DNA of 62,515 nucleotides, counting the filler, from an uncultured bacterium (GTDB taxonomy: Bacteria > DYJV01), in assembly GCA_964543655.1 (NCBI GenBank). It is 4 parts of 4 records of this genome, joined end to end, with 100 filler letters (N's around TTAATTAATTAA, not from the genome) between each part and the next. Parts side by side here need not be neighbours in the genome. Positions count along the whole stretch, not along the records: positions 1 to 24,608 come from CAZIZE010000007.1; 3 more parts are not named here. One strand, 5' to 3'. The notes under the pieces were generated by a model. It made no database searches. It had not been told where the DNA came from and saw only the letters and a list, made by a program, of their open reading frames with translations. The translations under genes and the position numbers were made by a program. Shown here piece after piece: positions 1 through 42,324 of the stretch. Each line of letters opens with the position of its first letter. Within the stretch, counting starts at the first letter, position 1.

Positions 1-461
1 ACATTTGCATATGGTGAGTTAATTACAGTTAATTGAAAATTTCCTTTTTTTTTAGCATAATTTAATATTTTTTTGTAAAAACTTAATAAATTAATATTAC
101 TGCTTACCTCATCAAAAAAATAACCATCTATGGGAAATTTGCAATAAAAATCTATTTTTTCTTTAATAACTTTAATAGATTTTTTACCACTATCTGTTGA
201 AATGTATGCTATGTTTAAAATGCCATTCTTTTTTAATTTTTTTATTGCAAATGTGTAATTGTCATTATCACAAATTATTCCCCAAATTACCACAGTTGTT
301 ATTGTTTTGGGAATTTTTAAAACTTTTCTCCAAATTTCTCCATTTTGATCAGAGGGGCAACTGTAAAGAGGAATTAATAGATTTATTTTGGCAAAAATTT
401 TAATATTAAGAATAAAAATTAAATAGAGGTATAGAGTTAAAATTGAATATTTTTTTAACAT
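1..461 (-). CDS. Spherulin-4 (spherulation-specific family 4, GH135-like) exported protein, runs off the window edge
   Basis: Not in the ORF track. Manual translation from ATG 461 is open to base 1: MLKKYSILTLYLYLIFILNIKIFAKINLLIPLYSCP...NIAYISTDSGKK...PIDGYFFDEV...TVINSPY. Hydrophobic N-terminus plus IPLY, YIST and DGxFFDE motifs typical of the family. Confidence 0.7.
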   Translation of the reverse strand, partial: MLKKYSILTLYLYLIFILNIKIFAKINLLIPLYSCPSDQNGEIWRKVLKIPKTITTVVIWGIICDNDNYTFAIKKLKKNGILNIAYISTDSGKKSIKVIKEKIDFYCKFPIDGYFFDEVSSNINLLSFYKKILNYAKKKGNFQLTVINSPYAN

Positions 462-496
462 TACAAAAGGCTAACTACCATAAAATTATTGTTATT

Positions 497-1765
497 TCAA
501 TATAAGAAACAGAAAGGATCTTTAAAATATGAAAAATTGATTTTAAGAGAATCGGTTACTGCAAGACAGCCTCTGCAAACTCTGTTAATAGGGCAATTTA
601 AACACTCTTGAGGAGGTTTTCTATATTTTTCTGCTTCTTCTGAAAAATATATAGTTTCAAAATCTTCCCTATAAACATTTCCAATGTATGAATGAAATTT
701 TCTACACGCATGAACTTCACCATCTGGAAGTATAGCTACAAAATTAAAAGCAGCTCCGCATCCAAAGTTTGTGCATCCACCAAAAACCTCATTATACTCT
801 TTGTACAAAACAATATTAATAAGGTTTTCTTTTAATCTAATTTTTTGATTTTTTTTAGCAAATTCCACATATTTATGTAAAAAATTCATAAATTCTTTTT
901 TATCAACCATTTCCAGATTTTTCCCTTCTCCAATAAGAGCAAGTCGATTAAAAGTGATACTATCAGTAAAGCTGTTAATTGTTGGTATGAGGTCAAAAAC
1001 TTCATTTATATTTTTTTTGTTCAATGTGAGCATTACATTTGAATAAATACTATACCTTTTTAATAATTTTAGGAAATCTATACTTTTTTTAAAATGACCT
1101 TTTCCCCTGATAAAATCGTTGTAAGATTTTAATCCCTCAAGACTAATTTGGTAAAATGAAGGCTTTTTTATTTCAACAATTCTTTTCAATTTTTCTTCAG
1201 AAACAGGATTGCCCAAAATACCAAGAGTAAAACCCATTTCATCTGCTTTTTCATACAGTTTAAAAAAGCTTTTATGTAAAAAAGGATTACCACCTGTGAA
1301 AGTAATTTGAGGCCAAAGAGAATATTTGAAACAGAACTTGAAAATTTTTTCCATTATTTTTTCTAACTTCTCCATGCTAAGCTCTTTTCTACTTGTCCTA
1401 TCATAACAGTGCTTACAATTTAAGTCACATCTATTGGTGATATGCCATTGGACATTGAAAACCTCTGGCTCAAGAAAATCATTTTTATATTCCTTTATTT
1501 TAAGAGGAAACTTTATAGGATCTCTTTTAATTAAAGGTTCTGATTTTATAATAAGATTTCTATCAAATGCTCTTTTCAAAAACCATAAAATAATTTTAGG
1601 TTTGATTTGGAATTTTCTGGCAATTTCAAGAGGATCTAAATTTTCAGCAATAATTTTTAAAGCAAGCAATTCCTCATTTGTTGTAAGTTTTAGTTCTGAA
1701 TTTACCTTTAAATAGTAGTTCTCCTTATGTTTATGTATTTCAAGAGAAGGGTTTAATTTAAACAT
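497..1765 (-). CDS. sbtM: Radical SAM/SPASM RiPP maturase, selenobiotic (thio/selenooxazole-forming) family
   Basis: QWHITNRCDLNCKHCY (CxxxCxxC), FTGGNP, and a SPASM Cys pattern (GGCTNFGCGAA...ACRKF...CLNCPINRVCRGCLA...DPFCF). Lies directly downstream of an SGUG peptide. The track start (1795) is inside a hairpin, so ATG 1765 is preferred. Confidence 0.8.
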   Translation of the reverse strand: MFKLNPSLEIHKHKENYYLKVNSELKLTTNEELLALKIIAENLDPLEIARKFQIKPKIILWFLKRAFDRNLIIKSEPLIKRDPIKFPLKIKEYKNDFLEPEVFNVQWHITNRCDLNCKHCYDRTSRKELSMEKLEKIMEKIFKFCFKYSLWPQITFTGGNPFLHKSFFKLYEKADEMGFTLGILGNPVSEEKLKRIVEIKKPSFYQISLEGLKSYNDFIRGKGHFKKSIDFLKLLKRYSIYSNVMLTLNKKNINEVFDLIPTINSFTDSITFNRLALIGEGKNLEMVDKKEFMNFLHKYVEFAKKNQKIRLKENLINIVLYKEYNEVFGGCTNFGCGAAFNFVAILPDGEVHACRKFHSYIGNVYREDFETIYFSEEAEKYRKPPQECLNCPINRVCRGCLAVTDSLKINFSYFKDPFCFLY

Positions 1766-1777
1766 TTTATAAAAGAA

Positions 1778-1800
1778 AAGGGATGCGAACTGCATCCCCT
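1778..1800 (-). promoter_or_regulatory. Candidate SECIS for the third UGA of sbtA; also intrinsic-terminator-like
   Basis: Minus strand reads AGGGGATGC-AGTTC-GCATCCCTT (9-bp stem). The loop starts 19 nt after UGA 1813-1811 and has G then U near its 5' side. A U-rich tract (TTCTTTT) follows. Confidence 0.6.
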
Positions 1801-1804
1801 ATTG

Positions 1805-2041
1805 TTAACCTCAACCACTACTTTCTTTTTTCATCATCTTACTTGAAGAATTATCTTTAGATTTATTATCAGATTTTGTGCTAACAGCACTACTGGATTT
1901 TCCGCCTCAACCTCCTCATCCACTTTTTGCAATAACTATCTTATCATTATCCAAATTTGTTGCATGCAAAAGATTGGCACCACCTATTAAACTAAATAGA
2001 CTTAATCCAGCTAAAAATTTTTTAACATTATCATTTTTCAT
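1805..2041 (-). CDS. sbtA: Selenocysteine-containing RiPP precursor (SbtA/selenobiotic family), 78 aa, 3 Sec
   Basis: SD GAGGTG, ATG 2041. Translation MKNDNVKKFLAGLSLFSLIGGANLLHATNLDNDKIVIAKSGUGGUGGKSSSAVSTKSDNKSKDNSSSKMMKKESSGUG, ending in TAA (1807-1805). In-frame TGA at 1918-1916, 1909-1907 and 1813-1811, each flanked by Gly. Adjacent to the rSAM maturase. Confidence 0.85.
1878..1890 (-). promoter_or_regulatory. Candidate in-frame SECIS hairpin for UGA codons 42/45 of sbtA
   Basis: Minus strand reads GTGCT-GTT-AGCAC. The GU-initial loop starts 21 nt after UGA45 and 30 nt after UGA42. Confidence 0.45.
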
Positions 2042-2063
2042 TTTTGTCACCTCTTGCATAATT

Positions 2064-2086
2064 TTCCCCCTCTATTAGAGGGGGAA
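2064..2086. other. Strong intergenic hairpin between the large cytochrome gene and sbtA
   Basis: TTCCCCCTCT-ATT-AGAGGGGGAA, a perfect 10-bp inverted repeat. No U-tract on the transcribed (minus) strand. Confidence 0.7.
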
Positions 2087-2094
2087 GGGAATTC

Positions 2095-4491
2095 CTACTT
2101 TTTCCCTGGTTTTGAAGGAGGAATACCTTTGGCAGGCTGAATACCTCTTTTAGCAAGTTCTTCTATAATTTTTTTCATCATTTCTAAGTGTTGTTTTGGA
2201 TCCAATGTGCCTTTTGTTGAAATTTTTTCCCACAATTTTGCCTGAGTCATACTCTGGTGACATCCCATACAGAGTCCTGACCTCATAATAGTATCAAGTT
2301 CCTGTTTATTAAAAGCTCTACTCATTGGCCAGTGTGTACCTACTGTGGCAACCTGAACCCCATCTCTTGTTACAATTTGAGACCAATCATATTTTAACTC
2401 TGGAATTCCAGGGATTTGAACTTTATATTTTGTAGGAATTACTTTATTGGTTTTAGCATTAATCAAGTCTTCAACAATATCTTTATCCCATTTCATAAAA
2501 GAACCGCCACCAATTCCAAGGCCAACTGTTTTTGGATTAGTATGACATGATTCGCATGTTCTTGCTTTCCTCTGAGCAGTATGTGGTTGAACAGGACTCA
2601 TATCAATTGCAAGAGGTACCTGTTTTTGTCCTAATTCTTTAGCCTCATCAAGGCTATATGCGATTTTATTATTAACAAGAACTTTTCCATCAGGACCAAT
2701 TACTGTATATGTAACCTGACAGCCTGGCATTAGAGGTGAAACTCTTCCTTCTCCATTGATTCCAAGCACAGGATCTTCCCATCTTAAGTATGATCTTGAT
2801 TCCATTGCTTTACCAAGAGATTTTACACCATTTGTCCCATAAGCAGCATCAGCTGTTTGGCCATGTTTGTCATGAGTATTTCCATTTGCAATCCAATCAG
2901 TATCCATCTTCATTTTTCCAGTTTTTTTATCTCTTTTAAAAGTAACTTTCACATGGCATCCATAACATTGTGGTACCCATGAAGCATGGCATGAATAACA
3001 CTCCATCTTGTCCATATGTTTAGCTACTGCTTCCATTGCTACTTTAGCAGAAGGATCTTTCCATTTATTCTGTAAAGAAAGATTTTTTAATACAGGAACA
3101 TGGAAATCGTTTCCTGTTGCAGAGTGAACAATTACTTCATTACCTTTTCTAACAACATTTCCAAGTGGATTACCTCTTGCTGAAAGAATAAAGCCATCTT
3201 CTGGTTTATATTGGAATCCAAATTGATCTTCAGGCGCAACTCTTTTTTTTGCAACTCCTCTTGGTTTGTTAGAAAGCTTTTTACCTGCTTCATCACCATA
3301 ACCAAGTGGCAATTCCCATGGATACTTATCTGGTCGACCATGGCAATCTGTACACTCTATTTCTACCTGACCTAAAGTAGTTGTATGAATATTGCCATCG
3401 CCATGCATTTCTATACTTGTGTGGCAGTCCTGACATAGCAGACCACCTTTAGGGTTCTCTTTCCTGCTCTGATATTGATGATGTAAATCATCTGAAATAA
3501 AAATATACTTTTTAGTATGGAGCTTTGGTTGCTTCATACCTTTTTTATTAAAAGGAGTACCATAAGGAAATTCCATTAAACCTTGAAATGAAACACCAAT
3601 TCTTTTTCCTCTATTGTGACAAGAATTACATGTTTCTACAGGTATACCACCAGTGTATCTTGTACCAGCAATTTTATGCCTTAATAAATGGCCTGGTTTA
3701 TCTTTTGGAATGGAAGGATCATTTCCTTCATAATATCCATCATTGCTGTAGAGAATATGACATGCGGAACATCCCATTCCTCTGTAGTCGCCTCTTTTCT
3801 CTCTTCCTCTTACACCAATATGACATCTCTGGCACTGCTGTCTTTGATAAACAATTCCAGCAAGTTTAGGATCTTTTATAACATCAGCCACTTTAACAGT
3901 AGGAAGCTGTTTTAATTTTTCAGGATAAATTTTAGGATACATCTGAATCATTTCTTTCATATATTTTTTATATTTATCCATTCCTACCATTGGCATTGAA
4001 CCGTCAAGATCCTCTGCATTATAGTTACCATAAGGATTATTATGATTTTGAACTTCTTTAAATCCCCAGGTGTGAAGGTTACCAGAAATTTTACCAGCCT
4101 CTGTGTTCATTAATCCAATTTTATTTCTATAAACGTATCCAACGTGACAAACTCCACAACTATTATCAGCAATCCAGATTGAACCAGGATCAGGATAGAA
4201 AGCCTTTGGACCAGGTGCTATTTTCAATGTTGCAGGAACACCTTTGTGTGCTTTATCCTTGTCTTTGGTCTCTTTTGGGTTACCACCGTGACAGATTACA
4301 CAGCCATCAGGATCGCCATGCATTTTACCATTGTTTAAAATTGCCTGCATCATTTTACTATCTTTTGGCATAATGTCTTCAATTCCTTTGTGACATTTTG
4401 CAGTTGTACACCCGCCGCCAGCATAAATAAAGTTAGCAAAAGATAGAAAAGAACAGATTGAAATAAAAATTACAAACCTTTTAAAACTCAT
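2095..4491 (-). CDS. Large exported multiheme cytochrome c (11 CxxCH plus one CX4CH)
   Basis: Signal peptide. Motifs CTTAKCH, CVICH, CGVCH, CQRCH, CSACH, CNSCH, CQDCH, CTDCH, CYSCH, CYGCH, CESCH, CMGCH. SD GGAGGGAG. Confidence 0.9.
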   Translation of the reverse strand: MSFKRFVIFISICSFLSFANFIYAGGGCTTAKCHKGIEDIMPKDSKMMQAILNNGKMHGDPDGCVICHGGNPKETKDKDKAHKGVPATLKIAPGPKAFYPDPGSIWIADNSCGVCHVGYVYRNKIGLMNTEAGKISGNLHTWGFKEVQNHNNPYGNYNAEDLDGSMPMVGMDKYKKYMKEMIQMYPKIYPEKLKQLPTVKVADVIKDPKLAGIVYQRQQCQRCHIGVRGREKRGDYRGMGCSACHILYSNDGYYEGNDPSIPKDKPGHLLRHKIAGTRYTGGIPVETCNSCHNRGKRIGVSFQGLMEFPYGTPFNKKGMKQPKLHTKKYIFISDDLHHQYQSRKENPKGGLLCQDCHTSIEMHGDGNIHTTTLGQVEIECTDCHGRPDKYPWELPLGYGDEAGKKLSNKPRGVAKKRVAPEDQFGFQYKPEDGFILSARGNPLGNVVRKGNEVIVHSATGNDFHVPVLKNLSLQNKWKDPSAKVAMEAVAKHMDKMECYSCHASWVPQCYGCHVKVTFKRDKKTGKMKMDTDWIANGNTHDKHGQTADAAYGTNGVKSLGKAMESRSYLRWEDPVLGINGEGRVSPLMPGCQVTYTVIGPDGKVLVNNKIAYSLDEAKELGQKQVPLAIDMSPVQPHTAQRKARTCESCHTNPKTVGLGIGGGSFMKWDKDIVEDLINAKTNKVIPTKYKVQIPGIPELKYDWSQIVTRDGVQVATVGTHWPMSRAFNKQELDTIMRSGLCMGCHQSMTQAKLWEKISTKGTLDPKQHLEMMKKIIEELAKRGIQPAKGIPPSKPGKK

Positions 4492-4611
4492 TTCTCCCTC
4501 CTAAGATTTTTAAAAATTTGTGAAAATAAATTTTCATATCACCTCCCTTCTTATAAAAGTTTGAAGTTCATAATCCAATGTTGAGAAGTAATTACACACA
4601 ATATTATGTAT

Positions 4612-5793
4612 TTATTTTGCATCATTTATTATTGGTAAAGCAATTTTAACAAGCATAGTGTATATTAAAAGCCCAGCAGCCCATATACCTATAACAATGA
4701 ATACTTCATTTAAAGTTGGCACATATTGAATAAAATCACCAATAGTTGAAGGTATGAACCCTGGAATTAGAAATCCAAGACCTTTTTCTAACCACACCCC
4801 GAGCACTGTGAAAAGGCATGCAATTATGAGAAAACTATTTTTAAATCTTAAAGGTGTTACAAATATAAAAACAGCAGACAAAATTAAAAGTATTGCAAGC
4901 CAAATCCATGGAGTTAATAAGCTTGAACCGTGCAGTCCAAGTAAAAAAGAAAGATGAATAGTATGAGTTGTTGAATGATAAAGTTCAGCAAAAATTTCAG
5001 AACCCATAAGAATAAGATTAATAATTAGGCTGACAGTTACTATAATTCTAATTCTATTAATTGCACCATCACTTATTTCAATTGCTTTACTCTTTTTCAA
5101 AATCATAAATACCAGAATCATAAATGCGGGACCTGCAGAAAAAGCAGATGCCAGAAATCTTGGTGCAACAATTCCTGAGTGCCAGAAAGGTCTTCCTACA
5201 AGAGCTTCAAATAAAAAACCTGTAACAGTATGAATTGATGGTGCCCATACAATAGAAAGAAACACAACAAAAATATAAAAAGATGTTTTTACTTCTAAGT
5301 GCCTATATTTTCGTGATAAATAGTGCCAACAAACAAAAAGATTAATTAAAAGATAGCCATTTAAAACAAGAACATCCCATGTTAACATTGACCTTGGCCA
5401 ATGAAATCTTCCTATTACCGGTATTAGATGCCATAGCCTATCAGGCCGACCAAGATCTATTGTAATAAAAAGCATGCACATTATAAGTGCAGCAATTGCA
5501 AATAGCTCTGCAAAGATAACAATTTTCCCCATATCTTTATCTTTAAAAACATATGCAGGAATTACCATCATCACAGCAGCAGCAGCCATCCCTACAAGAT
5601 AAACAAAGTTTGCTATATAGAATCCCCAGGAAACTTCATCTCCCATTCCTGTTGTATAAAGACCAAAAGCAAGTTGTTTAGCATAGCAATGTAAACCTAT
5701 TAAAACCAGGGTTAATAAAAACAATACCCAGATAATGTATGCTTTACTGCCATTTATTGTTGATTTTACAATATATCTTAAAACATCTATCAT
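4612..5793 (-). CDS. NrfD/PsrC/DsrP-family quinone-interacting membrane subunit
   Basis: About 10 TM helices; VSWGFYIANFVYLVG, DLGRPDR, SIHTVT and RFLASAF motifs. Confidence 0.88.
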   Translation of the reverse strand: MIDVLRYIVKSTINGSKAYIIWVLFLLTLVLIGLHCYAKQLAFGLYTTGMGDEVSWGFYIANFVYLVGMAAAAVMMVIPAYVFKDKDMGKIVIFAELFAIAALIMCMLFITIDLGRPDRLWHLIPVIGRFHWPRSMLTWDVLVLNGYLLINLFVCWHYLSRKYRHLEVKTSFYIFVVFLSIVWAPSIHTVTGFLFEALVGRPFWHSGIVAPRFLASAFSAGPAFMILVFMILKKSKAIEISDGAINRIRIIVTVSLIINLILMGSEIFAELYHSTTHTIHLSFLLGLHGSSLLTPWIWLAILLILSAVFIFVTPLRFKNSFLIIACLFTVLGVWLEKGLGFLIPGFIPSTIGDFIQYVPTLNEVFIVIGIWAAGLLIYTMLVKIALPIINDAK

Positions 5794-5811
5794 CTATTCC
5801 TCCCCTATCTT

Positions 5812-6735
5812 CTAAGCTTTTGAAAAAACATAGTATAATTGAGGTATTGTGCCCATCTCCTCTTTTAAAATGAAGACTCTTTCCTGCTCTATAATTCTTC
5901 TAACTTCACTTTTGGGATCCCTTAAATTTCCAAATTTTCTTGCACCAGTTGGGCAAACCTCAACACATGCAGTATATTTTCCTTTTCTTGTTCTTTGAAG
6001 GCAGAATGTGCATTTTTCCATCACATTGGTATATCTTGGCCTGTTGGATAGATATGCCATATCAGGATTAAGTTCATCAGATGGTATGTGTGGTTTTGCC
6101 CAGTTGAAACGTCGTGCATGATATGGACATGCTGCTTCACAATATCTGCATCCAATACACCAGTTATAATCTACTACAACAATACCATCCTTTTCCTTCC
6201 AGGTTGCTCCTACTGGACAAACTTCAACACAAGGAGGTTTTCTACATTGGTGGCATTGAATAGGCATGTACCAGTAATTGGGGTCAGCAGCTTCATTTTC
6301 TGGGTAATCGTGGCTTCCCTGTTCAAGGTTAATGGAGCCTTTTTTCATTTTCACAACTCTAATATATTGAATTTGAGGATTACGTGAAGTATTATTTTCT
6401 TTCATACATGCATAAACACATCTTCTGCAACCAATACATCTACCCACATTAATTACCATTGCAAATTCCACTGCATCAATAGGAGGGGGATCGTCTATTT
6501 TAACCTTTTTGTTATACTCTTTTCTTAATTTTTGCTCCAATTTTTTAAAAAGTACCTTTTTATCCTCTGGTGTCATTTCTTTATAATGTTTTTGGAGTAT
6601 TTCATCTATAGTTGGTACTTCAGCTGCTTTGGTTAAAGGAGAAAGAGCTGCTGCGCCAGCAAGTGTAACAGCTCCACCAACAGCAGTTGCTGTAATAAAT
6701 TCTCTTCTTGTTAATTTTTCTTTCTTTTTTTTCAT
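5812..6735 (-). CDS. Tat-exported 4x[4Fe-4S] protein (NrfC/DsrO/QrcC family)
   Basis: Twin-arginine signal LTRREFI. Four Cys groups: CIGCRRCVYAC, CHQCRKPPCVEVC, CIGCRYCEAAC, CTFC...CVEVC. Confidence 0.9.
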   Translation of the reverse strand: MKKKKEKLTRREFITATAVGGAVTLAGAAALSPLTKAAEVPTIDEILQKHYKEMTPEDKKVLFKKLEQKLRKEYNKKVKIDDPPPIDAVEFAMVINVGRCIGCRRCVYACMKENNTSRNPQIQYIRVVKMKKGSINLEQGSHDYPENEAADPNYWYMPIQCHQCRKPPCVEVCPVGATWKEKDGIVVVDYNWCIGCRYCEAACPYHARRFNWAKPHIPSDELNPDMAYLSNRPRYTNVMEKCTFCLQRTRKGKYTACVEVCPTGARKFGNLRDPKSEVRRIIEQERVFILKEEMGTIPQLYYVFSKA

Positions 6736-7389
6736 CTATTTTGCCCCTTTAATTTTGTTTGGAACAGGAAATGATAAAGAATATGGTGTATTCTCAAATA
6801 TATCAATAGGTTTTAACCTTATAAACTTTTTGTCCCATACTGGTGCTGGGTCAAAATTTCTAAATTTATATTTTGGAGAATGTGGATCATGGCAAAAAGT
6901 GCATTTGAAATTTGTCCTGTCAAATCTTCCTTTTACAATCCATTTCCCTCTTAAAGAACCGTGCATCCCATTTTTCCACCTTTTGTAAACAAGTCCATGA
7001 CACCTTGCACAGAGAAGCTCTACATTAAAATACATTATTTTAGAACCGTCATTATTAACATAGTTATTTCTGTCAGATTCAAGATGGCAATTGAAACATC
7101 TATTGTTTTTCCCATGATTTAATTTAACTTCTGGGTGAACAAATTGAACAGGAAAATGAGAAAGTTGAGGTATTGAAGCCCACATAGCATGGCATACCCA
7201 GCAATTGCCCACAATAACAGCATGTTTCATTAAGTTTTCTCTTGGAAGCTCAGGATTGTACCATTTGGCTTTTAATTTTGGTATATTTTTTATTGGATTG
7301 GAGACTTTTTGCCCGCTAATTATAAAACTAATAAAAAGTATAATGCATAGAGGAATACCAATTATTAGCCATAAATTATTTTTATTCAT
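6736..7389 (-). CDS. Membrane-anchored tetraheme cytochrome c
   Basis: N-terminal TM helix; CWVCH, CFNCH, CARCH, CTFCH. Confidence 0.85.
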   Translation of the reverse strand: MNKNNLWLIIGIPLCIILFISFIISGQKVSNPIKNIPKLKAKWYNPELPRENLMKHAVIVGNCWVCHAMWASIPQLSHFPVQFVHPEVKLNHGKNNRCFNCHLESDRNNYVNNDGSKIMYFNVELLCARCHGLVYKRWKNGMHGSLRGKWIVKGRFDRTNFKCTFCHDPHSPKYKFRNFDPAPVWDKKFIRLKPIDIFENTPYSLSFPVPNKIKGAK

Positions 7390-7544: not shown

Positions 7545-7820
7545 ATGAAAAAATTTAGAGCAGTTTTAATTATTTTTACTCTTCTTTTTTCCACAATTCT
7601 TTTTGCAAAAAGCATTACAGAGACTCTTAAGGTTAAGGGTATGTCGTGACCTGGTAGAGCATATCAGGTGCGTAGCGCCTTAAAAAGTAACAGTGGTATA
7701 GAAAATGTAAAAACAGATGTGCATAATCATACAATTAAAATTACATTTGACAACAGCAAAATAAATTTGGAGAAAATAAAAAGAATTATTGAAGATAAGG
7801 GATTTAAAGTAGTTAAATAA
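7545..7820 (+). CDS. Exported heavy-metal-associated (HMA; MerP/CopZ-like) selenoprotein, 91 aa, Sec35
   Basis: SD AGGAGG, ATG 7545. Translation MKKFRAVLIIFTLLFSTILFAKSITETLKVKGMS-U(TGA 7647-7649)-PGRAYQVRSALKSNSGIENVKTDVHNHTIKITFDNSKINLEKIKRIIEDKGFKVVK, ending in TAA. The TGA sits at the first Cys of GMxCxxC, the HMA pattern continues after it, and the ORF ends 11 nt before the next gene. Confidence 0.8.
7666..7680 (+). promoter_or_regulatory. Candidate SECIS hairpin for the HMA selenoprotein
   Basis: AGGTGC-GTA-GCGCCT, a GC-rich island in AT-rich DNA. The GU-initial loop starts 22 nt after the UGA. Confidence 0.55.
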
Positions 7821-40457: not shown

Positions 40458-41159
40458 ATGAAAAAGTTTTTTTTATATTTTACTATAAATCTTATGGCAA
40501 TGGTTATTTTAGCTGGTTTTACCTTTGCACAGAATTGTGCCAAATGCCATAAAAATGAAGCTATGCTGTTTAAAAAAAGTGTCCATTCATCAGAAATAGG
40601 ATGCACAGATTGTCATACAGAAGCTGATACAAAACATGGAAAAGGTTTTAAATCTCCTGTTAATTGCCTTGATTGTCATGATAAAATGGCTGGAGTGAAA
40701 AAGAGTGTTCATGCTAAAGCTCTTTTCAATAAAAAGGAAGGTGTTTTTATGTGTTACAAATGCCATGGAAAACACTTGATTTTACCTAAAAACAATCCTT
40801 TTTCAAAAGTAAATATTAACAACCTCAAAGATACATGTACATCATGCCATACCAATATCAAAAATTTTTGGGGTAAATTTAGAATTTCTGCTCATGAAAA
40901 ATTTGCTACTGGAGACAAATACACAGATTCCAACTGTCTTGCATGTCACCATGGTTCTGTTGTTCACGGTGAAAAGAATTTAGACCCAACATATTGTAAT
41001 AAATGCCACAATTCTCAAACTCTAAAATTTCACACACAGGCTATAAGTAGTGTTAGATGGTGGGATTTAATAGCTTTTCTCTTTTTCATTGCTGTAATCT
41101 TATGCATTACTTCAAGATTTTACAAATTAATTAATAAACGGAAAGAAAATGATAAATAA
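40458..41159 (+). CDS. Heptaheme cytochrome c with C-terminal membrane anchor
   Basis: Signal peptide; CAKCH, CTDCH, CLDCH, CYKCH, CTSCH, CLACH, CNKCH; C-terminal TM helix. Confidence 0.88.
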   Translation: MKKFFLYFTINLMAMVILAGFTFAQNCAKCHKNEAMLFKKSVHSSEIGCTDCHTEADTKHGKGFKSPVNCLDCHDKMAGVKKSVHAKALFNKKEGVFMCYKCHGKHLILPKNNPFSKVNINNLKDTCTSCHTNIKNFWGKFRISAHEKFATGDKYTDSNCLACHHGSVVHGEKNLDPTYCNKCHNSQTLKFHTQAISSVRWWDLIAFLFFIAVILCITSRFYKLINKRKENDK

Positions 41160-42324
41160 TTCACCTTTTAAAAATATTAAAGTTCTTGACCTTTCACGGT
41201 TATTACCTGGCCCATATTGCACAATGTTACTTGGCGATATGGGCGCTGAAGTCATAAAAATAGAGGACCCGGGGATTGGGGATTATTTTAGGAACTGGCA
41301 ACCTATAAAAAAAGAAAATAGCGTTTTTTTCATTGGTGTAAATAGGAATAAAAAATCCATAACTTTAAATTTAAAAAAGGAAAAAGGTAGAGAAATCTTT
41401 TATAAATTAGTAAAAGATGCTGATATTGTTGTGGAAAGTTTCAGACCAGGAGTTGCTGAAAAACTTGGAGTTGACTTTGAAACTTTAAGCAAAATAAATA
41501 ATAGTATTATCTACTGCTCTATAACAGGTTATGGACAAAACACATCTATTAAAAAAAAGGCTGGCCATGATCTTAACTACCTTGCTCTATCAGGTATTCT
41601 CAGTATTACTGGATGTAGAAATAAAAAACCAGCAATATTAGGCGTACAAATAGCTGACATGGCTGGTGCTATTGTTGGAATTATAGGTATTTTAACAGCG
41701 CTATTTAACCGTGAAAGAGGAGCAAAGGCTCAATACATAGATGCAGCTATGCTTGATGGCCTTTTCTCGTTTCTATCAATGGTTGGAGCAAAATATTTCT
41801 TTGATAGGCAAATTCCTGATATTGCAGATAATCTTTTTAATGGTGGTTTTGCCTGTTACAATATTTATGAGACAAAGGATGGAAGATTTTTCTCAGTAGC
41901 TCCTATTGAAGATAAATTTTGGAAAAGATTCTGTGAAGTTATGGGTAAAGAAGAGTGGAAAGGATTAAACACAAAAGAAGAGTATCAAGAAAAACTTATT
42001 GCTGAACTTTCTCAAATATTTAAAAGCAAAACTTTTGACCAATGGAGAGAAATTTTTGCAAAAGAAGATATATGTGTGGAGCCAGTTTTAAACCTTGAAG
42101 AAGCCTTTAATCAGCCATATGTTGAAGAAAGAAAAATTACATTTAAAATACCTGATCCAATTGATGGAGACACTGAACATATAAAAAATCCTCTTGAAAT
42201 AAATTCCATAAAATTTCAAAAAAATACTCACCCTAAATTTGGGGAAAATAATGAAGAAATTTTTTCAAAACTTGGATATACAAAAGAGGATTTAGAAAAA
42301 TTGAAACAGGAAGAGATTATATAG
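41149..42324 (+). CDS. Class III CoA-transferase (CaiB/BaiF, methylacyl-CoA racemase-like)
   Basis: VLDLSRLLPGP, NRNKKSI, ESFRPGV, GHDLNY, QIAD. Confidence 0.92.
   Translation: MINNSPFKNIKVLDLSRLLPGPYCTMLLGDMGAEVIKIEDPGIGDYFRNWQPIKKENSVFFIGVNRNKKSITLNLKKEKGREIFYKLVKDADIVVESFRPGVAEKLGVDFETLSKINNSIIYCSITGYGQNTSIKKKAGHDLNYLALSGILSITGCRNKKPAILGVQIADMAGAIVGIIGILTALFNRERGAKAQYIDAAMLDGLFSFLSMVGAKYFFDRQIPDIADNLFNGGFACYNIYETKDGRFFSVAPIEDKFWKRFCEVMGKEEWKGLNTKEEYQEKLIAELSQIFKSKTFDQWREIFAKEDICVEPVLNLEEAFNQPYVEERKITFKIPDPIDGDTEHIKNPLEINSIKFQKNTHPKFGENNEEIFSKLGYTKEDLEKLKQEEII

Follow-up and report, generated by a model that had tools for sequence, protein, structure and literature searches.

We analyzed a stretch of DNA of 62,515 nucleotides (nt), filler included, joined end to end from parts of four records of an uncultured bacterium (assembly GCA_964543655.1) and called the window from here on. 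A small frame on its minus strand, sbtA (1805..2041), is very probably the precursor gene of a two-gene SbtA/SbtM cassette for a thio(seleno)oxazole peptide of the class made on ribosomes and modified post-translationally (RiPP), carried by an uncultured, very AT-rich bacterium. The SbtA/SbtM system formerly went by the name 'selenobiotic'. The gene has 78 codons, opens with ATG at 2041-2039, closes with TAA at 1807-1805 and contains three in-frame TGA triplets. Its stop (1805) directly precedes the start of the maturase gene sbtM (1795 or 1765) on the same strand.

The first-pass annotation of this DNA had described, without naming a strand, an unannotated peptide with three selenocysteines (Sec, U) of the form SGUGGUGG ... 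SSGUG-stop. It had added a Shine-Dalgarno site and an ATG, a signal-peptide-like N-terminus, G-TGA-G contexts, a spacer ending in TAA, and a complete lack of Cys. Translation of minus 2041..1805 bore out each of these features. The peptide is MKNDNVKKFLAGLSLFSLIGGANLLHATNLDNDKIVIAKSGUGGUGGKSSSAVSTKSDNKSKDNSSSKMMKKESSGUG; it carries KSGUGGUGG before a Ser/Lys/Asp-rich spacer, and ends ESSGUG. The TGA triplets lie at 1918-1916, 1909-1907 and 1813-1811 (codons 42, 45 and 77, hereafter UGA1, UGA2 and UGA3) in the contexts gga-TGA-gga, ggt-TGA-ggc and ggt-TGA-ggt, and the frame has no Cys codon. A Shine-Dalgarno-like GAGGTGA (2047..2053, minus) stands 6 nt 5' of the ATG. A start at the alternative upstream ATG (2059) would lengthen the peptide by six residues; we prefer 2041 because of this site and because the resulting N-terminus has the family form M-x4-[LIV]-K-K-x-L-A-G. 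A plus-strand reading of 1805-2041 was ruled out by many stops throughout.

In the protein collection, the sole sbtA entry is an unnamed 47-amino-acid (aa) form ending at the first TGA, by a look-up that is unable to find any record written with U; within that scope the gene is indeed unannotated. For this 47-aa call (P0242) a precomputed Pfam entry, PF27804.1, is listed, and our own Pfam-A search of the sbtA peptide gave no match. A word-index search with the 41-aa N-terminal part matched only the window's own 47-aa call. A metagenome scan for closer relatives returned one contig, L081 (a 100%-identical match), which is 99.87% identical to window 1-4661 and carries an identical 237-nt sbtA; as it may derive from a related sample, we did not count it as fully independent.

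The peptide was assigned to the SbtA family on its leader, its core motifs and its adjacency to SbtM, with the curated cut-off of TIGR04081 taken as an operational threshold. TIGR04081 (SbtA family thio(seleno)oxazole RiPP precursor) was the sole NCBIfam match of the peptide (26.1 bits, E 5.2e-6), spanning residues 1-22 on a model of 27 positions. Scoring against this model, as the first-pass annotation had proposed, thus found the family and missed its cut-off of 30.5 bits, the latter a point against the assignment. Eight of nine SbtM-adjacent relatives pass that cut-off (30.7-47.9 bits) and one fails at 28.9, and we therefore regard the sbtA peptide as a divergent member; a tenth reference, L054, was left out of this count for its wrong coordinates. 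A profile of the leaders of 40 precursors from other genomes matched the sbtA frame with E 3e-6 to 7e-7; among the 1,920 stop-to-stop segments of the window and L081 this frame was its only match (E 7e-7, next best 0.51). The leader fits the family type, in which a hydrophobic stretch comes after M-x4-[LIV]-K-K-x-L-A-G. The core likewise fits the family S-[SG]-[U/C]-[SG]-G motifs, the last of which lies 0-4 residues from the stop, here as KSGUGGUGG and SSGUG-stop. Judged by its predicted sequence, then, the sbtA peptide is a divergent and otherwise ordinary SbtA/TIGR04081-family precursor. The earlier claim of a 'selenobiotic' precursor beside a TIGR04082 maturase is upheld by the SbtM adjacency, the family leader, the SGUG motifs and the family hairpins described below.

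The neighboring sbtM (497..1795, minus) encodes a short-form thio(seleno)oxazole radical SAM/SPASM maturase that scores 510 bits against TIGR04082 (cut-off 350). The match covers model positions 123-516 of 516, leaving the N-terminal ~120 positions unmatched. As NCBI-named SbtM proteins of Caldimicrobium and Thermosulfurimonas have 431 aa, the short form is accepted within the family. Pfam recognized Radical_SAM (65.4 bits) and SPASM (35.2 bits) in the protein, and C123, C127 and C130 (CxxxCxxC) together with the SPASM cysteines are invariant in a 22-protein SbtM alignment. The four closest SbtM proteins are 58-62% identical. The first ATG of sbtM (1795) falls inside the hairpin that follows sbtA; the in-frame ATG at 1765 gives MFKLNPSL..., matching a conserved NPSL near the N-terminus of other short-form SbtM proteins. 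According to the available part of PMC11002830, both Cys and Sec peptides lose 4 H when treated with SbtM in vitro, and nuclear magnetic resonance shows a thiooxazole on the Cys product.

Two hairpins in the sbtA transcript resemble the selenocysteine insertion sequence (SECIS). The first, GUGC-UGUUA-GCAC (1878..1890, minus), lies within the coding frame, where it is read as S-A-V-S-T, and would act for UGA2 and probably for UGA1. The second is a 9-bp hairpin, AGGGGAUGC-AGUUC-GCAUCCCUU, with a T-rich tail (1778..1800, minus) in the 3' untranslated region (UTR) after UGA3. Counted from the U of each UGA, the loop starts at 22 nt for UGA3 (1811..1813, minus; two codons ahead of the stop) and at 23 nt for UGA2 (1907..1909, minus; stem of 4-5 bp), the latter inside the family range of 19-26 nt. 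UGA1 (1916..1918, minus; S-G-U-G context) lacks its own hairpin, and the shared loop starts 32 nt from its U. Expressed as codon-to-loop gaps, the distances are 19, 20 and 29 nt for UGA3, UGA2 and UGA1. The UGA3 hairpin folds at -14.1 kcal/mol (z -3.3 to -3.9), a value equaled by 0/200 shuffles. Its predicted structure is compatible both with a SECIS serving UGA3 and with an intrinsic-terminator-like site separating sbtA from sbtM.

The comparison set comprised 80 SbtM loci from species-representative genomes, mostly of Desulfobacterota and Nitrospirota, whose SbtM proteins are 41-50% identical to that of the window; all small frames in these loci were translated with TGA read as U. A hairpin of consensus GYGC-NGKUN-GCRC follows nearly all candidate UGA codons in these relatives. 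Under a rule requiring a stem of at least 5 bp and a 5-nt N-G loop that begins 19-26 nt from the UGA's U, it followed 81 of 101 candidate UGA sites, a number that includes probable stops and over-read tails, as against 245/15,095 other TGA triplets (1.6%) in the same loci. In an alignment of 80 hairpins from 34 loci, picked by the stem rule with one of the 81 dropped by hand, the covariation score was 0.555 versus 0.208 after shuffling (0/500 as high) and at most 0.15 in slid controls, and all seven stem pairs vary on both sides. Because selection by stem biases the paired fraction, the comparison of 81/101 with 245/15,095 is the cleaner test.

A covariance model (R1) was built from the relatives' hairpins, with the window excluded, and run on both strands with filters off (125 kb). 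Its top match, 1801-1777 (minus; 15.1 bits, E 0.12), is the hairpin after UGA3; the hairpin after UGA2 (1896-1872, minus) ranked 8/11. Neither E-value is significant singly; their weight comes from the spacing, as each match is separated from an in-frame TGA by the distance typical of the family. When those of the window's 2,222 TGA triplets that have such a hairpin were ranked by G-C pairs, the top four were 1813(-), 7647(+), 41247(+) and 1909(-). The SECIS-like hairpin at TGA 41247 was set aside as chance, being out of frame with the open reading frame (ORF) 41149-42324. A separate SECIS for UGA1 was also rejected, as nothing beyond a GGA/UCC helix of 3 bp, its loop made of A alone, could be drawn.

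With this evidence in place, the proposal that sbtA is a chance open frame or a sequencing artefact is effectively refuted, and we give it next to no credence. In its favor, AT-rich DNA will not very rarely run for 37 codons without TAA or TAG (a rough estimate is ~0.1). Against this stand the unique leader-profile match, the adjacency of SbtM, two family-type hairpins at the right distances, and the identical sequence in L081.

Several observations weigh against full Sec decoding of the frame. The internal hairpin reaches only -5.4 (core) to -6.3 kcal/mol (extended), above the -7.5 kcal/mol rule, and folds no better than shuffles (z -0.6, +0.35); the region attains -7.6 kcal/mol only as a whole 60-nt stretch. 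R1 scores this hairpin at 9.8 bits, E 3.6. UGA1 and UGA2 would depend on one element, so that two SelB deliveries would be needed within three codons, whereas in Caldimicrobium-type relatives each of two close UGA codons has its own hairpin. At gathering thresholds, Rfam reported no SECIS family in the window and found tRNA only, the sole one being tRNA-Leu; tRNA-Sec was not found in the window. In addition, the comparison loci for which DNA was available come no closer than ~50% SbtM identity.

Some of these points could also describe an sbtA that is decaying or working poorly, with UGA1 and UGA2 read through inefficiently and a 41-residue fragment as the main product. Such a gene would explain the energy of the shared hairpin and its likeness to shuffles, the low R1 score, the leader below the TIGR04081 cut-off, and the 29 nt that separate UGA1 from the loop in place of the family's usual 16-23 nt. 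We nevertheless judge decay unlikely. In DNA of 26-37% G+C, 37 codons have stayed open past UGA1, and they end in the family SGUG-stop followed by a strong hairpin at the exact family distance. SbtM is intact, the same sbtA occurs in the 99.87%-identical L081, and a weak hairpin is to be expected in so AT-rich a genome. The layout of U-x-x-U with one hairpin also recurs in two relatives, L010 and L034. Shared loops have parallels in the set: counted from the first U, the loop starts at 29 nt in both L010 and L034, and for L057 and L067 the figure is 38 nt. We retain the reading of sbtA as a probable selenopeptide precursor.

Two further features of the hairpins were apparent across the relatives. 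Translated in frame, the SECIS hairpin itself (GGU GCA GGU AGC ACC) yields the motif G-A-G-[GS]-T, which recurs behind internal Sec residues and has S-A-V-S-T as its counterpart in the window; RNA structure thus constrains part of the 'core peptide'. In the 3' UTR, the elements that come after the final Sec prefer AGUUU or GGUUC loops.

The leader profile identified 55 leader-bearing precursors in 52 of the 80 SbtM loci, and in most of these peptides S-[SG]-U-[SG]-G motifs hold 2-4 Sec. When a U was accepted only with a SECIS-like hairpin after it, 0, 1, 2, 3 and 4 Sec were counted in 12, 7, 18, 14 and 4 of the 55 peptides; this rule stops at the first U in five peptides that have about three Sec by eye, and over-reads probable TGA stops in L013, L039 and L076. 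Counted by eye, about 18 relatives have three Sec and three have four (L040, L065 and L067). The four-Sec precursors (L040:5209-5526, L065:5097-5426 and L067:817-1065) have a hairpin for each UGA. In its available part, a 2026 review (PMC13188914) gives '2-3 Sec' as the upper range for prokaryotic selenoproteins and '2' for TIGR04081, and the four-Sec precursors exceed both figures.

Six precursors are all-Cys (L033, L042, L050, L070, L075 and L076) and three mix Sec with Cys (L029, L062 and L024), and it follows that U and C interchange at the motifs. A comparison of columns, which the first-pass annotation had put forward as a check, accordingly finds U or, less often, C at the homologous positions (L029, L050, L042, L062). 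Sec-containing precursors without Cys also occur, in L016 and as the second peptide of L034. U-x-x-U pairs are found in L010 (SSUSSUSG) and L034 (SSUSSUG), and U-x5-U pairs in L057 and L067. The precursor of L049 (Caldimicrobium) shares the plan of the window peptide: two close U, a long K/S/T/D/N-rich spacer, and KSGUG-stop.

The special standing that the first-pass annotation had given to three Sec, to an all-Sec core and to the UGGU pair consequently does not survive this comparison. Three Sec are common (14/55 by the rule, about 18 by eye), precursors without Cys exist in L016 and L034, and U-x-x-U occurs both in L010 and L034 and in several selenoprotein families tabulated in the available part of PMC13188914. 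Taken from the sequences, the multi-Sec, UxxU and no-Cys features of sbtA each have precedents, and none is unique. Selenooxazoles at all three sites, and a chelating or diselenide site at UGGU, both put forward in that annotation, stand as predictions.

Two groups of relatives showed other arrangements. Beside short-form SbtM in Caldimicrobium metagenome-assembled genomes, three precursors (L049:5475-5753, L049:5809-5991 and L060:272-457) have a different leader that the profile missed, and a U-x4-U pair in which each UGA has its own hairpin, the two standing in tandem. At the C-termini of L013, L028, L039 and L059, a Sec-UGA is followed two codons on by a second TGA, too near the hairpin (14-15 nt), and reading through this second TGA gives junk in L013, L028 and L039. 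In these four loci TGA seems to stand for Sec and for stop within 6 nt of one another.

Our model for the window begins with the sbtA mRNA, whose three UGA codons would be read as selenocysteine, with SelB recruited by the two SECIS hairpins. The in-frame hairpin (1890-1878) would serve UGA2, to which it stands at the canonical distance, and also UGA1, which is 9 nt farther off, and the 3'-UTR hairpin (1800-1778), which resembles a partial terminator ahead of sbtM, would serve UGA3. Given the family membership and the published in-vitro activity, cytoplasmic SbtM would then turn Sec residues in the S-G-U-G motifs into 5-selenooxazoles, with a loss of 4 H per site. The N-terminal 27 residues look like a Sec-type signal peptide, with K7 and K8, a 17-residue hydrophobic stretch FLAGLSLFSLIGGANLL and then LHA|T in the layout seen by eye; cleavage after LHA would release a soluble periplasmic peptide of ~51 residues. 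Most relatives, which have a lipobox Cys, would be lipid-anchored instead. Across the 80 SbtM loci, the cassette has no conserved neighbor that encodes a transporter or a protease.

The full Sec peptide might also be made without becoming an exported triple selenooxazole: SbtM could modify it in part, for example at the C-terminal SGUG, with the UGGU pair left as selenols or a diselenide and the N-terminus serving only as a recognition leader for SbtM. The in-vitro chemistry was reported for single substrates (PMC11002830, available part), selenoproteins are known to use UxxU as a redox or metal motif (PMC13188914, likewise in part), and TIGR04081 covers the N-terminal 27 positions, the part that a maturase usually recognizes. 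Against this alternative stand the identical S-G-U-G context of all three Sec, the n/h/c layout of a signal peptide in the leader, the lipobox-like Cys at the matching place in most relatives, and the absence of a conserved dedicated exporter nearby. On balance we consider this outcome distinctly improbable, and continue with an exported product.

What such a product would do is the most conjectural part of the model. By analogy with bufferins, the heterocycles might bind metal or metalloid ions. In the available part of the bufferin report (bioRxiv 10.1101/2024.03.18.585515), these peptides have Sec signal peptides and copper-binding thiooxazoles. A wider proposal would take SbtA leaders in general as export signals and the family as periplasm-facing selenooxazole lipopeptides. 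In the window it would have a soluble three-selenooxazole ligand for metals or metalloids acting with the multihaem-cytochrome/NrfCD-like module and with a MerP-like candidate selenoprotein, both described below, and one weak SECIS feeding two UGA codons 9 nt apart. We offer this proposal tentatively and regard it as more doubtful than probable. The local neighborhood fits a metal-binding role, though it is unconserved in the family. Our literature search turned up no publication that deals with what the SbtA family makes or does in vivo.

Directly upstream of sbtA lies a periplasmic electron-transfer module (2095-7389, minus). It consists of a c-type cytochrome (6736-7389, minus), an NrfC/DsrO-like Fe-S protein (5812-6735, minus; 182 bits, cut-off 200), an NrfD/DsrP-like membrane protein (4612-5793, minus; 379 bits, cut-off 350) and a 798-aa multihaem cytochrome that is distantly ExtM-like (2095-4491, minus; 213 bits, cut-off 800), ExtM being a selenite/tellurite-reduction protein. 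The 53-nt gap between the multihaem cytochrome and sbtA holds a G+C-rich hairpin, CCCCCUC-UAAUA-GAGGGGG (2066-2084, minus), with no T-run after it; it was unmatched in a terminator scan and may mark where a transcript ends or begins, or where it is processed. L081 adds the next two genes, for a Spherulin4-family protein and a YkuD L,D-transpeptidase-like protein, neither of which is tied to peptide maturation. The divergent upstream genes are an HMA-domain gene and a sensor kinase/response regulator pair.

None of this surrounding is conserved in the family, and the electron-transfer module was not seen next to SbtM in the 80 other loci. In tblastn searches with 12 window or L081 proteins, seven adjacent genes included, each was found in at most 3 of the 80 SbtM loci, and adjacency of ExtM-like or NrfCD-like genes was on this basis rejected as a family trait. 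Clustering of 2,021 ORFs likewise returned no conserved neighbor, only SbtM and antisense ORFs overlapping it. As no neighbor gene is conserved, we treat sbtA-sbtM as a two-gene cassette.

The HMA-domain gene (7545-7820, plus), which encodes a signal peptide, has an in-frame TGA at 7647-7649 and a hairpin at 7666-7680. Pfam HMA matched across the TGA with 49.1 bits over all 62 model positions. The protein is MerP/CopZ-like, yet it reaches neither family's cut-off, nor that of the UxxU metal-binding selenoprotein model. The TGA stands at the first Cys of M-x-C-x-x-C, and the second Cys is Arg (AGA, one base from TGA). The hairpin, AGGUG-CGUAG-CGCCU, has a loop that starts 24 nt from the TGA, a family-like distance. 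These features make the HMA protein, predicted to be periplasmic, a candidate for a selenoprotein whose site would read U-x-x-R. Found in an intact HMA domain 5.6 kb from sbtA, this TGA and its hairpin lend indirect support to Sec decoding in the host.

The G+C content is 24-37%. Among named organisms (Desulfacinum, Desulfosoma), the best identity to the window's isoleucyl-tRNA synthetase (IleRS) is 58-59%, while metagenome proteins reach 69-82%, and by IleRS the nearest named relatives of the host appear to be Desulfobacterota. One sequencing run containing window DNA is labelled hydrothermal vent metagenome. As to expression, no RNA run with this DNA is listed and run X2 lacks a contig across 1833-1996, neither of which counts either way.

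The family is widespread, and this locus leaves existing knowledge of it unchanged. What sbtA adds is a divergent, AT-rich, short-form example to a family studied in print, as far as we found, only in vitro. It also illustrates how selenopeptide precursors are lost in automatic annotation: the gene appears only as a 47-aa fragment, and the curated hidden Markov model misses it by 4 bits. For surveys aimed at such genes, the loci suggest a practical rule: a GYGC-NGKUN-GCRC hairpin at fixed distance, read in frame as G-A-G-[GS]-T; a final Sec that lies 0-4 residues before the stop and has its SECIS in the 3' UTR; and a signal-peptide or lipobox leader with no conserved exporter. If export and metal binding proved true, the products would be selenium analogues of bufferin-type periplasmic metallophores.

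Four known systems frame these results, the two reviewed in PMC13188914 and the bufferins being described here from the available parts of their sources. The catalogued UxxU selenoproteins (for example the NF041115 metal-binding protein, and FmdB-family and Prx-like forms) likewise have two UGA codons 9 nt apart to decode. They are folded redox or metal-binding domains, whereas the pair in the window lies in a Gly-rich RiPP core whose Sec residues would be expected to become heterocycles.

The consensus bacterial SECIS has a loop of 3-9 nt with G in the first two loop positions, lies 16-37 nt from the UGA, and has a minimum free energy of at most -7.5 kcal/mol (PMC13188914). The UGA3 element agrees with all four rules (9 bp, AGUUC, 19 nt, -14.1 kcal/mol). 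The element shared by UGA2 and UGA1 agrees in loop, G and spacing (20 and 29 nt) but fails in energy. In both loops the G is followed by U. The family hairpins are tighter than the general bacterial consensus, with GYGC-NGKUN-GCRC at 19-26 nt from the U.

The bufferins differ from the predicted sbtA product in enzyme and in scaffold. Their heterocycles are made by an O2-dependent multinuclear iron enzyme (MNIO/DUF692) with DUF2063, where the window has an anaerobic radical SAM/SPASM protein, and their precursors are folded Cys proteins of 80-120 aa, without sequence relation to the low-complexity Sec peptide of the window. Metal binding is demonstrated for bufferins and a guess for the sbtA peptide. 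In common are ribosomal synthesis, a Sec-type signal peptide at the N-terminus and 5-chalcogeno-oxazoles formed from Cys or Sec (these last two predicted here), the lack of a dedicated exporter, and surroundings that in the window are plausibly metal-related (the HMA gene and the multihaem cytochromes).

The closest comparison is with the SbtA/SbtM system itself, tabulated for TIGR04081 as 'Selenobacteriocin, SGUG, 2 Sec' in the available part of PMC13188914. The window differs from it by three Sec in place of the two listed there, by a leader below the TIGR04081 cut-off, and by a short-form maturase without model positions 1-122. It also has two UGA codons 9 nt apart that share one weak hairpin. 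Its leader ends in an AxA-type site, where most relatives have a lipobox Cys; by eye, about 10 of the 55 precursors are like the window in this respect. Shared with the system are the two-gene cassette, a maturase above its cut-off, the leader type, the S-G-U-G core, a Sec two residues from the stop, and, for UGA2 and UGA3, a SECIS-like hairpin at the family distance.

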